From positions 146,196,001 to 146,260,000 of the forward strand of contig OZ024740.1 in NCBI GenBank assembly GCA_964016885.1: a stretch of 64,000 bases of DNA, given 5' to 3'. The DNA comes from Eledone cirrhosa (lineage: Eukaryota). This document shows positions 26,307 to 34,314 of this stretch, piece after piece. The notes beneath the pieces are model-generated. The model was not told the origin of the DNA. It ran no database searches and saw nothing but the letters and a program-made list of their open reading frames with translations. Position 1 is the stretch's first letter, and every line of letters begins with the position of its first letter. The position numbers and the translations under genes were made by a program.

Positions 26307-27299
26307 CATTCATTCATTCATTCATTAAGGCCAATCTTGTTACTTTGGAGTTTCTCCTATGCACTCACAGGAGAAATTCTAGAGTAATATTGAGCACTCA
26401 TTTTTGCAATTGTCATTATTGTATATATAATATATTTGCACACAAACCACACGCACACATGCGCCAAGCACATCTTGTTGCTATTTCTTGGACAAAAAAT
26501 TTATTTGAATGCATTCTGAAATTTCTGTCTCTGGCATTTAAAAGATTAGATGAAATAGGATTTTAGTTTAACTGTAATATCTAGATTCAGTATCTTGGCT
26601 GTGTTTGACACTTTTATTGTAAATCTTGTTGCTGCTTGAGAAACTTAAAAATTAGATTTAAAAGCATACATCTCTAATATTCAAATGTTTTATCATTAGA
26701 GTAAGATTATGCCAACAACATTGCCAGTGCTGATTAAACTGTTTTTACAGTACATATCACGTTAAGTAGTATAACAACCAATTATCGTGTAGCAGCAACC
26801 TATTTCTGATGTTGCTCTAAGCATTTTAGTTGAATTCTCATATTTAATCCCTCCCTGCATTAAAAGAAGTGTGAGAATTAGTAGTCACATAAATGTTTAC
26901 ATGATTTCTCAGAAAAGCCTTATTGCAATATGCTGTTTCTTTAACATGAATATTATATTAATGGACCTGCTCGCCCTCCTGCGAAATGTAATGTAAAATG
27001 CAATTTTTTCTTGTCTCTCCAGCCTTTCAGTCCATTCATTCATATACCCGTATCCTCGCCCAGAATCCAATCTTTTGCTCTCTCTCAATGCTATTCTATA
27101 ATTCTGTCTGGTTGTTCTAAATAATCTTCTTGTATTTTAAAATCCCATTATTCGCTTAATACTGTTATATGCTTGTCCAATTATGCCCAAAATTCGAAGA
27201 TTTTATTTAAACCCTCTCGCTAACTACCCCATACCCATCCCACCCGCCCCCCACTCTCCACCATTATTATTAGGACCAATCATAAGTCAGCGGCCTATG

Positions 27300-30200
27300 C
27301 TATCACTTCTGGTTGCTTTTTGATATGATGGATGGACTAAGGAATTCTGGAGAGTCTGAAAAATCTGGACACTCAGTGACAATGCCAAAGATAGACAAAT
27401 TCACCTCATGCTGCCGGACGAAAAGGCAAGGACTCCCCCTCTTTGTTTCGGCCGCGGATGGCCAACATAACCCCATCCCCCTCACCCATTCCCACCCACC
27501 AAACGCAATCCAAAACTTCAGAGTTGGTACCATGAATGTAGGCACCTTAAAAAGTCGCTCTAACGAGGTTGTAGAAATGCTTGGACGTAAGGAGGTTGTT
27601 TGCTGTATCCAAGAGACCAGGTGGAGGGGTGGGTCTGCAAGATTCATTGTGGGTAAAAAACGGTGCTATAAGCTTTTCTGGGTAGGAAATGACAATGGGC
27701 TGGGTGGGGTAGGAATCATGTTAGCAGAAAAATGGGTAGATAAGATAATAGACGTAAATAGAGTGAACGACAGAATAATTAAAATAAGACTTGTCCTAAA
27801 TAGAACTACTGTGACAGTAATATCTGCGTATGCACCCCAATCCGGACTGCCTGGCGCTATAAAAGACAGATTCTATGAGACATTGATGCTCACTACCTCC
27901 CAAATAACCGACAGTGACTACATAATTATTGCTGGCGACCTAAATGGTCACATTGGACAACATGTTGACGGCTATGACGGAATCCATGGAGGCTATGGGT
28001 TTGGTACTAGAAATGAGGAAGGCTCCAGAATCCTGGAATTCTGTGACGCAAATAACCTAACTATCTGTAACACTAACTTCAAAAAATGAGACAATCACTT
28101 GATCACCTATAGATCAGGGGAACACGCCAGTCAGATAGATTATATCCTTACCAGAAGACGTGATAGTGTCTGTTCTAAACACTAAATCCCTCCCCCATAA
28201 CGAATCCACTTGCCAACATAGACTCATAGTCAGCGACCTCATAGTCAGGACAAGACGTACTCAACAACAGAGGAGGACTATCTTCAGGAGAAAAATATGG
28301 AAGCTAAAGGACCCCACAGCCAGTAGTAAATTTTTACTTGATGCTTTCGATTACTTGATGCTTTTGACAGTGCTTTCGACAGTAAGGAAGAGCAATTAGT
28401 CGTACAATATAGAGGAACAGTGGGAATTCCTGAAAGCTAACCTGCTGAAGGCGGCAGATGAAGTCTGTGACTGGAGCAGGCCTATAGGCAGGAGGAGAGT
28501 AACGTGGTAGTGGAACAGTAAGGTGGAGGAGTCAATTAAGGCCAAAACGTAGGCTGGGAAAGTATGGGGGAAGTAGAGAAGACTATCAAGTGGCCAGGAG
28601 GGAAGCTAGGAGACAAGTGTACTTCGCAAGAAGGGAAGCAGAGGAAAGAAAGTTCAAGCATGTTCTACAATGCGAGGACCAAAAACGTGAGGTGTTCAGG
28701 ATTACTAGGCAGTGTGTCAAGGAAAATCGTGATATTGTTGGGGAGAAGTGTGTCCTTAATGATGATGGTGTACTTACCATCACTGACGCTGATAAGGTAG
28801 CTTGGAAGTGTCACTACGAAAGGCTACTAAATGAGGAGAATAAATGGGAGAAAGACAGTCTCCCCCACATCGATCCAATAGAGGGACCAGCAGTGCTAGT
28901 TGAAGGTAGTATAATAAGTAAGGCAATCAAAGATATGAAGACGGGTAAGGCGGCTGGGCCTTCGGAAATAGTTGCTGAAATGCTGAAAGCATCTGGAACG
29001 GTGGGACACACTATGGTCACCCGGATAGTAAACCAAGTCATACAGAATGGGGCCGTTCCGAAGGACTGGCGTAGCAGCATCATCATTAACTGCTACAAGG
29101 GTAAAGGAGTTGCCCTAGATAGGGGTAACTATAGAGGCATTAAATTAATCGACCAAGTCATGAAGGTCACATGTTCATCAGGGCTCCGTTCTTAGCCCCC
29201 TCCTATCTATTTATTATTGCCCTTCAGGCTATAACAGGAGTTCAAGACCGGCTGCCCATGGGAACTCCTATATGCCGATGATCTAACGCTCATAGCTGAA
29301 TCAATGGCTGAACTAGAGAAGAAATTCCAAACATGGAAGCACGGCCTAGAATCAAAAGGCCTTAAAGTTAACTTGTGTAAGACTAAAGTTCTAGTTTGTA
29401 GGAAGGAAAATAGGGCACCGGTCCCATCTGGGAAATGGCCATGCTCAGTGTGTAGGAAAGGAGGAGGCAGAAACTCCATTTTATGTCCCAAATGCAAAGT
29501 ATGGGTGCATAAAAGATGTAGTGGGATCACAGGTAAGCTAACTAAGAATATAGATTTTATATGTGGCCGGTGCTCTGGTGCAATAAGTAGCAGCAAGTGC
29601 CTACAGAATACTAGCTCATTCCATTGCACAGATGGTTCTATAGAAATAGTGGACACCTTCCATTACTTGGGCGACAAAATCAGCAGTGGGGGAGGGTGCT
29701 CTGAAAGTACAGTAGCTAGTCAGAACGGGATGGAAAAAGTTCAGAGAGCTTATACCACTATTAGCTGCTAAAGGGTTCTCTCTAAAAATGAAATGCAGGC
29801 TGTATGATGCCTGCATACGAACAGCAATGTTACATGGCAGTGAGACCTGGGCATTGTGTGCAGAGGATATATGCAGACTGGAGAGGAACGAAGCTTGCAT
29901 GCTCCGTTGGATGTGTAATAGTAATATACGTGAACGGCAAAGCATAAACGAACTAAGGGAAAAATTAGGAATAAGAGGGATCAGATGTTGTTTACTTGAG
30001 AGAAGACTACGTTGGTATGGTCATGTGATGCGAATGAAAGACGACAGCTGTATAAAAAAAAGTGCAGGGCGATATAAAAATAGACGGTAGCCACGGAGTA
30101 GGCAGACCCAGAAAAACCTGGGACGACTTGATAAATTCCGACCTCACACACTTACACCTCTCCAAGACAATGTCACTGGACCGAGATCTTTGGCGCTACA

Positions 30201-32181: not shown

Positions 32182-33483
32182 GTAAATATTACACCTTTCT
32201 TTGTTGTTTCTTTTTTCGGTGTTTTTTTTTTTGTCAAAATATATATGGTTTTGTTTTAACCCAGTTTTTATTAAATTATAGAACAAATAAAATAGAGGCA
32301 CAGGTGTCTTAAGTGTTTCTTACTGTAACACTGGGTGAACCAGTGCCTTGTAATTAGAATTTAATAGATGAAAACTATGCAGAAACTCATTCTATATGTA
32401 TACCAGTGTTGTTTATTTATTTTGTCCTGTTACTTGGCAGACTGACAAACAGACATCAATAAAATAACTACAATAAGTAGTGGGATCAATATGATGGTCT
32501 AAACCTTTGAAGGGAGTTTCCCAGCATAGCCACAGTTCTTTAAATGAAACCAGTAAAAGAATAGATGTTATGCAATGAAATATTCTTCTATTGTCTGCCA
32601 TTATAATTGTCATATTAGCATAAATAATGGAAGAATATTATTGATTTTTGTTCATTGATATTTCAGAAATACTGCTTGAATAAAGTGTTTTCAACCAAAG
32701 CAGTGTGTGTATTTTTGTTTTGTTTTTTTCAACTGGGGTAATGCAATAACTTTGGGTGCAAACTGTGTAATGGTACTGTATATAACTAGATTAAACTTGG
32801 AAAATAACATTAATTAATAGTACCGAAGATATGATATGTGGAGGTGGAGTGATATCATTGAAAAAATATTGAATCAAATACAGAATATAAAGTTGTAGCA
32901 TATTCACATTTCCACTAAAAAAAAATGAGGTCAGCATCACCTTTCATTTGCAGAAGGTACTTAGCATTGCCTGGGCGAACTAATTGCACCACTGATTATT
33001 GAATATTTTAATCTCCTACGTTAAGAGATTGTCCTCTCTTCAAATCTGAGTTTCTCTATAACTATGGAAAAATCTAATGTCTAAGTGTTTGGATGAAAAA
33101 TATATAATCATCATTTTACAACCATTTTTCCATGCCAATAAGGTTTGGGCAGATTATTACTAAATCGGGACTTGATCTCAGCCACTGTCCTCTTAGATAA
33201 GTTGAAGGTCCACATGTCGCTCAGTATGTTCCATATTTGGCATGGTTTCTATGGCTGGATATTCTTCGAAATGACATCACTTTACAGAGTAGACTAGGTG
33301 CATTTTGTAACACCAACACTGTCATGTTCTTGAACTGACTGAAGAGTCCTCTCTTATGTTAGCATTCAAATTTCAACCACTTTACAGTGTGTACCAAGTG
33401 CATTTTATAATGGCACTAATACTAGAAGTCAACTTGTTCCAAGACAAGCATGTTTCAGAGTAATTACAAATTCTATTCTGATA

Positions 33484-33893
33484 AGTATGTTTTAAAACAG
33501 TGAGCGAGTTTGAAATTAGAAATATAAGCTTTCACTGTATTTTTGACTAGAGAAATTTTTAGCCTGATAGTGGGGTTTAGAACCCTCAATCGGGCTAAAA
33601 ATTTCTTTAGTCAAAAATACGGTGAAAGCTTATATTTCTAATTTCAAACTCGCTCAGTTTCAAAACATACTTACTTGTCATTTACTTGGTAAGAATGTAG
33701 CTTCTAATTTGAATGGAAGGAGATGGGTGATGTGTTGGTGTAATGGTAGCACAGTGGTCTGGATAACCAAAGATGTGGGTTTGACTCCCATATACGTCAA
33801 TACTCATCTTTTTCCATTTCTCTGAGGGTTCTAAACCCCACTATCAGGCTAAAAATTTTAGTAAAAAATACGGTGAAAGCTTATATTTCTAAT
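33484..33893 (+). mobile_element. tRNA-containing element with Penelope-like inverted plus direct terminal repeats and 13-bp TSD
   Basis: Inverted arms at 33483-33568 and 33589-33672, direct partial repeat at 33823-33896. TSD TTCTATTCTGATA at 33471-33483 and 33894-33906. Confidence 0.75.
33729..33799 (+). pseudogene. tRNA-like cloverleaf (anticodon position GGA) inside a mobile element
   Basis: Acceptor GATGTGT/ATACGTC, D stem GTGT/GCAC, anticodon stem TGGT/ACCA, T stem GTGGG/CCCAT. The T-loop TTTGACT and T37 are non-canonical. Confidence 0.7.
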
Positions 33894-34314
33894 TTCTATT
33901 CTGATAGTTTCTTTCCTTGCACATCTCACTTATAGAATTCTCTTGACTTTTTACTTTCCTGGCCACTACAATTTGCAACAATTTAAAAGCATCAATCATC
34001 GTCTTCTCCTTCCTTGAATTGTTCTCTCTTGTCCTTTTTTTCTTCTCAGTAACCCCTTGCATTTTAGTGGCTTTATTGCCTTGCTTAGTGTGAGTAAAAA
34101 AAAAATAGAAGGAAAGTGGTGGCTAAAGGAGACATTGATGTAATATTATGAGTGTGTTAGGAGAGACAGTAATGGGATTATATGGAAGTGGGTATTGGTG
34201 GAGAGAGTGAGTAGAGGTTGAAATGAAGAGGTTGAATAAATAACAGCAGAAACTTGAAGCTGGGAGATAGGGAATGGTAGCTATATTATATTATGTTTAT
34301 ATATTATACTATTG

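Follow-up and report, generated by a model that had tools for sequence, protein, structure and literature searches.

A tRNA-bearing, hammerhead-free tandem repeat family with the insertion footprint of Penelope-like elements

Introduction

How does a repeat spread that looks like a Penelope-like element (PLE) but carries a complete tRNA cloverleaf where a ribozyme would be expected? The question is raised by a locus in the 64-kb stretch of DNA analysed here (hereafter the window). An earlier note on this DNA had read the locus as a Penelope-style, circularly permuted or tandem-transcribed element that uses its tRNA fold as a Pol III promoter or as a signal for RNase P/Z, and had called it possibly undescribed. 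According to the available text of PMC8557442 (Craig et al.), PLE insertions feature partial tandems, inverted 5'-truncated copies, a tail of 30-40 bp usually at one end, and a bias for (TA)n. The accessible sections of PMC11167929 (Frangieh et al.) describe the tail as the stretch between two internal reverse transcriptase (RT) start sites in an AC-rich stem-loop; they further report that PLEs nick and extend both target strands, and that no hammerhead cleavage is needed in vitro. We examined the window copy and its family against this background.

Results

Structure of the insertion in the window

Unit positions are numbered from the start of the tRNA (u1 = 33729), and the unit consensus is 256 nt. 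The layout proposed earlier, namely an inverted arm, a unit of about 255 bp and a partial direct repeat, was borne out (Table 1). The inverted arm is the reverse complement of u95-u201, and starts at 33482 if its overlap with the flank is counted. The 13-nt direct repeat that had been claimed as a target-site duplication (TSD) is exact (33471-33483 = 33894-33906), and the element ends overlap its left copy by 2 nt and its right copy by 3 nt, so that 8-13 nt were duplicated. In a joined-site pattern search, the 13-mer was single in all six matches, which are paralogous empty sites in the older host repeat; the TSD is thus a true duplication. That host repeat (33894-34098) is dispersed, with 72-90% identity to six other copies. 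Two features of the window copy are atypical: its position outside (TA)n, which explains the visible TSD, and a B-box change at 33782. A broken LINE, presumably RTE-like, lies 3.4 kb upstream (27286-30090, + strand) with endonuclease and RT fragments, and is unrelated to the element.

Table 1 Features of the insertion and of its flanks in the window.
Feature	Position	Strand	Remarks
Left TSD	33471-33483	+	Last 2 nt also match the long end of the element
Inverted 5'-truncated arm, u95 to u199-201	33484-33588	-	Outer end of the long (tailed) class
Direct arm, about 1.2 tandem units (u115-u256, u1-u171)	33589-33896	+	Outer end of the short class (u168 = 33893)
Conserved stem closing an A/U/C-rich loop	33619-33658	+	Strands 33619-33625 and 33654-33658; overlaps the hammerhead-half at 33615-33637
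'Tail' of about 37 nt, from the short end site (u168) to the long one (u205)	33643-33677	+	Internal in the first unit of the window copy
Purine-rich leader	33712-33728	+	Pairs with trailer; like the leader of a host tRNA-Gln gene
tRNA-Gln-like cloverleaf	33729-33799	+	43/71 identical to a host tRNA-Gln
A box; B box	33736-33747; 33779-33789	+	Inside the cloverleaf
A58 equivalent (u56)	33784	+	Hotspot of family 5' ends and fold-backs at 33788-33791
Trailer pairing with leader	33802-33818	+	T5 run at 33809-33813, Pol III terminator-like
Right TSD	33894-33906	+	First 3 nt also match the element end
Older host repeat receiving the insertion, outside the element	33907-34098	+	33894-34098 with the right TSD

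Insertion footprint of the family

The footprint was determined on matches to a family k-mer with 1,638 copies, taken in order along chromosome C1 and not picked by structure. The 70 loci yielded 63 distinct insertions after 7 overlapping ones were dropped, mostly of subfamily B and all from that one chromosome; the window copy, three other known sites and the last nine sites in order stand outside the sample. A (TA)4+ run lay within 30 nt in 62 of the 63 insertions, and 42 were tail-out inversions. Almost all outer ends (102/105) fell into two classes, short (u135-172) or long (u196-213). With three of the 42 inversions set aside for an end outside both classes, 38 of the 39 classifiable ones combined one long with one short end (19.5 expected, p 7e-11), a pattern that speaks for two priming sites, with both target strands used. 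The window copy obeys this rule as well, with its long end on the left and its short end on the right.

The Penelope-style, tandem and permuted, non-SINE architecture that the earlier note had seen is supported. The tandem plus inverted truncated copy, the 30-40-bp tail at one end and the (TA)n bias known from PLE passengers were all found, the window copy being an exception for (TA)n. Nor do copies uniformly start at the tRNA 5' end and close with a LINE tail, as those of a plain SINE would; 3' ends lie at two fixed internal sites and 5' ends vary.

Hammerhead-like stretch and putative docking stem

The stretch at 33615-33637 had been likened to the 3' half of a minimal hammerhead that has no core. 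The lack of a working hammerhead was confirmed: no CTGANGA core was found on either strand of the four subfamily consensuses, and no Rfam hammerhead appeared among the 18 matches at E<=5. A role of the stretch as a functional motif became doubtful, in that GAAA is not conserved (subfamily D has GATA) and the preceding bases pair instead with a strand about 35 nt downstream. In this conserved stem, subfamily D carries a compensatory pair (T-A to C-G), and a 2-nt deletion weakens the fold of the window copy (z 0.61). A hammerhead on the - strand was rejected, as the core-like stretch found there has neither stem I nor the essential G, and the + strand is favoured by the G-U pairs. Since the short end lies in the loop of the stem and the long end beyond it, a PLE docking region is likelier here than a hammerhead-half. 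By analogy with the stem-loop described in the accessible part of PMC11167929, we infer that the stem-loop at u140-190 serves as the docking and RT-start region.

The motif, with which resident hammerheads share about 12 nt, may have descended from a ribozyme. A search for hammerhead families sharing the downstream sequence gave 25 pattern matches against 14 in the control, none homologous beyond 12 nt. Two small minimal-hammerhead families (L232, L238, L240, L253; and L237, L241) have a 3' half resembling window 33622-33632. Separately, one hammerhead-pattern locus contained another copy of the tRNA-bearing family.

Resident PLEs

GIY-YIG candidates number 10,596 genome-wide, and the five resident families sampled (L051, L053, L054/L066, L057, L068) carry the Neptune CX4CxxC linker. 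One young autonomous Neptune-type fold-back of 3.3 kb (L066:3460-6725), 99.7%-symmetric and located in (TA)n, has a canonical hammerhead and two unlike ends, a long one and a short one, that lie about 41 nt apart; L058 likewise has long and short ends about 40 nt apart. PLEs are abundant in the genome. PLE protein remnants lie near seven family loci (by position only), with none in the 64-kb window. A search of 40 GIY-YIG loci out of the 150 listed, a sample that leaves Naiads aside, gave no autonomous PLE whose 3' end is homologous (best E 0.8), and none was seen among the 25 hammerhead-pattern matches either. Four motif searches of published Naiad/Hydra consensuses, in which line wraps can hide matches, revealed no shared 3' end. 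As no sampled PLE shares sequence with the unit, it is from the footprint only that we infer the partner.

The tRNA-like module

The internal 71-nt cloverleaf was recognised by two programs. ARAGORN placed a tRNA at 33728-33800, the sole one in the window, and the Rfam tRNA model matched the window copy over model positions 1-71 (53.3 bits, E 2.8e-10). The extended acceptor stem reported earlier is likewise real and specific to the + strand, the fold of 33712-33820 reaching z -3.56 there versus -1.43 on the - strand; a 3-nt bulge follows the acceptor stem. By itself, the cloverleaf has ordinary stability (z -0.13). Rfam miRNA matches to the window element stay under the gathering score and reflect the inverted repeat only.

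The closest parent is tRNA-Gln in a comparison that took in host Gln, Thr and one repeat-borne type out of the whole host tRNA set. Some host tRNA-Gln genes share the leader and the trailer of the element, T run included, which suggests that the cloverleaf stems from a tRNA-Gln gene captured with its flanks. The T5 run of the trailer is kept in all four subfamilies. Among 20 stem pairs compared with host tRNA-Gln, 10 are unchanged, 8 are changed on both sides and still pair, 1 is changed on one side and 1 is broken. Because the eight double changes still pair, the whole fold, beyond the promoter boxes, appears to have been kept, and the cloverleaf would be maintained by selection unless its true parent is an unsampled tRNA. 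A functional tRNA gene was rejected, as the GGA anticodon comes without a long variable arm, one anticodon-stem pair is broken and the anticodon varies among copies. Serine identity was likewise rejected, the GGA anticodon notwithstanding.

Two other sets of tRNA-like sequences were seen in the host genome. A tRNA-Gln cluster (G000:C1:168.21-168.28 Mb; L204-L214) holds at least 22 gene copies, some with altered anticodons. A separate dispersed repeat of about 1.75 kb (L217, L219-L227), with copies about 95% identical, contains a tRNA look-alike with a variable anticodon and a 175-bp inverted repeat, and supplies 10 of the 16 Rfam tRNA matches.

5' ends and the T-loop

Truncation rates were calculated on 103 arms with a normal 3' end. 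At u60-63, 38 ends occurred in 281 nt at risk (0.135/nt), a pile-up of about 30-fold; the rate was 0.027/nt at u55-59 and u64-68 and 0.003-0.007 at u69-131, and the 14 nt on the 5' side of the A58 equivalent (u41-54) had no end in 418 nt at risk. An end at u60-63 was present in 27 of the 63 sampled insertions; this hotspot lies just 3' of the A58 equivalent. Symmetric fold-back joints from all sets lie at u61-62 in 23 of 26 cases, though the unit has 11 palindromic 4-mers, and the joint 33789/33793 was also seen in three of four public runs.

The T-loop carries a GUUCRA motif. In the available text of PMC13129541, TRMT6/61A methylates this motif even in mRNA, and the resulting m1A truncates RT. 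The pile-up at u60-63 is likely an m1A58 stop; both hotspot and inversion would be explained if RT stopped at u57 and the two cDNA ends then annealed through the CATG palindrome. The peak lies 4-5 nt 3' of the expected m1A stop, so trimming has to be assumed. Misincorporation by read-through at A58 is equivocal (4/125 vs 2.6% background, p 0.41), and variant copies number 47 at A58 against 20 at a single control A, where the spectrum is similarly rich in T. The A58 equivalent is retained in all four subfamilies, which leaves the m1A reading without a negative control. If the stop is indeed m1A58, genomic DNA here records an RNA modification.

Alternatively, the tRNA could be mere cargo of a PLE passenger copied from Pol II read-through templates, the hotspot at u61 arising from the T-arm hairpin and CATG microhomology. 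The T5 terminator, which blocks Pol III use, and the unclear misincorporation signal would agree with this, and passengers free of 5S and tRNA such as MRC1 are known (PMC8557442, in its available text). However, RT passes the far longer leader-trailer/acceptor stem (u91 to u69) unstopped, and its stops are confined to the T arm, where they fall on one side of A58. In addition, eight other palindromic 4-mers of the unit are no hotspots, and the compensated stems would imply a tRNA under selection. Cargo is a reading that we take seriously and consider unlikely.

Ends elsewhere bear on how the RNA might be processed. Among 59 tRNA-passing arms, 21 end in u240-u16 where about 9 are expected (p 1e-4), a mild excess that is compatible with a start near the tRNA, that is a Pol III start, or with an RNase P cut; 38 of the 59 extend upstream of the tRNA start. 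Both processing routes raised in the earlier note lose ground: the RNase Z site at u72 shows no 5'-end pile-up (hazard 0.005 at u69-89), and strict dependence on RNase P fits poorly with the 38 upstream-reaching arms and with the bulged acceptor stem of subfamily C.

Copy number, subfamilies and arrays

In the 3.0-Gb host genome, the element gave 4,439 first-look candidates, and exact 24-25-mers of the family occur 1,017 and 1,638 times, from which we estimate a few thousand insertions. There are four subfamilies with units of 256, 260, 290 and 271 nt, all non-coding; the window copy belongs to subfamily A. Divergence from the subfamily consensuses is 2.4-5.2%, with subfamily C the youngest (2.4%). 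Related sequence was present in public runs of two further organisms, in one at a small share.

Variable permutation points and tandem arrays, for which the earlier note had proposed to look, are both present: 5' ends vary, most tRNA-passing arms continue upstream, and arms of up to about 5.5 units as well as tandem arrays occur. Sharing of derived variants is about 2-5 times higher among the tandem units and between the opposite arms of an insertion than between unrelated copies, with the weakest excess in subfamily C; in subfamilies A and D, it is as high among tandem units of the same arm as between opposite arms. Such sharing is compatible with a circle or a homogeneous tandem source, without deciding for it. 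In three long arms (L258, L259, L262) the units differ by shared variant blocks; these blocks, together with the mosaic arrays, keep a tandem-source reading open.

Several large loci were noted. A 38-unit array of the 271-nt subfamily D unit (G000:C4:264915694-264925977; L161, L162) is (TA)n-flanked and ends at the short site; its units are about 12% apart with mosaic shared variants. An origin by one-pass rolling circle was rejected for this array, as the 32 scored units share variant blocks non-adjacently and with no distance trend. A second subfamily D array (G000:C4:61009822-61012308) has at least 9 units, with 9 matches at a spacing of about 272 nt, and at C2:314.54-314.62 Mb family copies recur every ~7.2 kb. 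Genome-wide, the tRNA 24-mer is strand-imbalanced (379 forward vs 638 reverse) and the A/B and D motifs are balanced; the imbalance may mark a large array, a possible source locus.

A PLE could also mobilise an element whose cloverleaf replaces the ribozyme, in that RNase P and/or Z cuts multimers into monomers, which are ligated into circles and copied repeatedly. Conservation of the whole cloverleaf by double changes beyond the A and B boxes, the mild excess of ends around u1 (21/59), the equal sharing in subfamilies A and D and the arms of several units are all in line with this model. Against it stand the lack of a 5'-end pile-up at u72 (0.005 at u69-89), a leader-trailer pairing that extends the acceptor stem, the bulged acceptor stem of the youngest subfamily, and the blocks in L258, L259 and L262, which would be expected from heterogeneous tandem sources or later exchange. 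Moreover, RNase P ends (5'-P, 3'-OH) are ill-suited to RtcB ligation. We judge such circles improbable.

Spread at the DNA level, by a Helitron-like rolling circle or as a satellite unit moved by recombination with fold-back repair, would suit the tandem arrays (38 units at 264.92 Mb and at least 9 at 61.01 Mb, C4) and the AT-rich targets, but the TSD, the 5' truncation and the tRNA-specific stop all point to reverse transcription. The two fixed 3' ends and the one-long-one-short rule are identical to those of a resident Neptune PLE, and even the 38-unit array ends at the short site in (TA)n, which makes this route very unlikely. A conventional tRNA SINE that depends on a LINE and was rearranged once, or by twin priming of the L1 type, would share the tRNA-derived A and B boxes, the TSD and the variable 5' truncation. 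It is hardly credible for copies with an internal tRNA, no poly(A) or LINE-type tail, multi-unit arms, and inversion with one long and one short end in 42 of 63. Classical L1 twin priming yields non-overlapping arms and was rejected, since the two arms here overlap in sequence.

Discussion

We conclude, with a probability of about 0.75, that the family is a high-copy, non-coding tandem repeat of 256-290 nt, hammerhead-free and mobilised in trans by a (TA)n-targeting PLE RT/GIY-YIG protein. The architecture, the (TA)n targeting, the two fixed 3' end classes paired in each inversion and the 5'-end hotspot were observed directly. In the mechanism that we propose for mobilisation by a PLE, a multimeric or repeatedly copied RNA would first be made. 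Its foremost candidate source, at slightly less than even odds, is transcription of tandem source copies by Pol III, driven by their tRNA A and B boxes and reading through the T5 run. The PLE protein would bind the u140-190 stem-loop and nick both target strands, and RT would be primed from each strand, at the long site (u202-212) on one and at the short site (u156-172) on the other. Both cDNAs would then often stall, as we think somewhat more probable than the converse, at m1A58 of the T-loop. Stalled cDNAs might either anneal to each other at u61-64, through the 4-nt palindrome there, or be joined to the TA flank, and so produce a tail-out inversion with a TSD; unmodified templates would be read through to give multi-unit arms such as that of the window copy.

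The conserved T5 run is the main difficulty for the Pol III model. Located 10 nt past the tRNA, it should stop Pol III before the RT-start region, so the model needs read-through; as 38 of 59 arms also extend past the tRNA start on its upstream side, the template cannot be a simple Pol III monomer. A more far-reaching version, which we regard as doubtful, is a ribozyme-free 'retrozyme', where the place of the hammerhead is taken by a tRNA gene captured together with its leader, trailer and terminator. The RNA would be transcribed, methylated and cut into monomers or circles by the tRNA enzymes of the host, a PLE dimer would prime from both target strands at two fixed sites, and the thousands of genomic copies would form a fossil record of an m1A58 stop. 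If true, the way in which PLEs form inversions and tails could be read directly from these natural copies.

SINEs are defined as parasites of LINEs and retrozymes by their hammerheads; a tRNA-bearing, hammerhead-free PLE passenger closes the gap that separates the two. How PLEs make tails and inverted insertions is an open question, for which the family provides unusually clean statistics, and with the sharp stop beside its T-loop, the 256-nt substrate suits in vitro tests of PLE insertion. In addition, its thousands of copies are liable to be mis-called as tRNA-Ser genes or miRNA hairpins.

No description of a tRNA-bearing, ribozyme-free PLE passenger was found in the literature searched, a body without Repbase, Dfam and most subscription journals. 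The suggestion that the element is undescribed holds for that literature, and is tempered by two relatives described in the partly accessible sources below, Sm-alpha (a tRNA tandem with a hammerhead) and MRC1 (a ribozyme-free passenger). According to the available text of PMC2770079 and PMC6765202, the SINE-like Sm-alpha and Sj-alpha of schistosomes resemble our unit in carrying a tRNA-Gln-related Pol III module internal to the propagated unit and in occurring as tandem and dispersed copies, and multimeric transcripts have been proposed for them. Sm-alpha differs in its active hammerhead, whereas the present family has the tRNA and no core on either strand; the PLE tail and inversion footprint of our family was not met in the descriptions of Sm-alpha available from these two sources.

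Animal non-LTR retrozymes are likewise non-coding tandem units of 150-400 nt, proposed to be non-autonomous PLE derivatives (PMC7229834, accessible part), a size and form that the family shares. They are defined by type I hammerheads and circular RNA (available text of PMC7229834 and bioRxiv 10.64898/2026.07.22.740005), whereas our family has a tRNA in each unit and no hammerhead; in the accessible text of the preprint, 'tRNA' occurs 0 times. From a SINE2, the family has the tRNA-derived A and B boxes and lacks the 5' tRNA head, the monomeric form and the LINE-type tail. The TRIMs Cassandra, Helenus and Ajax are non-autonomous as well and use an internal small-RNA gene (in Helenus a tRNA) as Pol III promoter, but they follow an LTR mechanism with PBS/PPT and a 4-5-bp TSD (PMC10886601, in its available text, where 'Penelope' occurs 0 times).

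MRC1 and other non-autonomous Chlamys PLEs are, like the family, ribozyme-free passengers with pLTR and multicopy head-to-tail insertions; they reside in green algae, as a rule have a 3' end in common with their partner, and have no tRNA reported in the accessible text of PMC8557442. The resident Neptune-clade EN+ PLEs match the family in (TA)n target, tail-out inversion and long and short ends about 40 nt apart; they differ in being autonomous, with RT, CX4CxxC linker and C-terminal GIY-YIG, and have no sequence homology to the unit, and the L054 family differs further by its canonical hammerhead. From these likenesses, the family is probably a non-autonomous PLE passenger akin to the retrozyme, Sm-alpha and MRC1 types, and its mobilisation by a PLE is likely.
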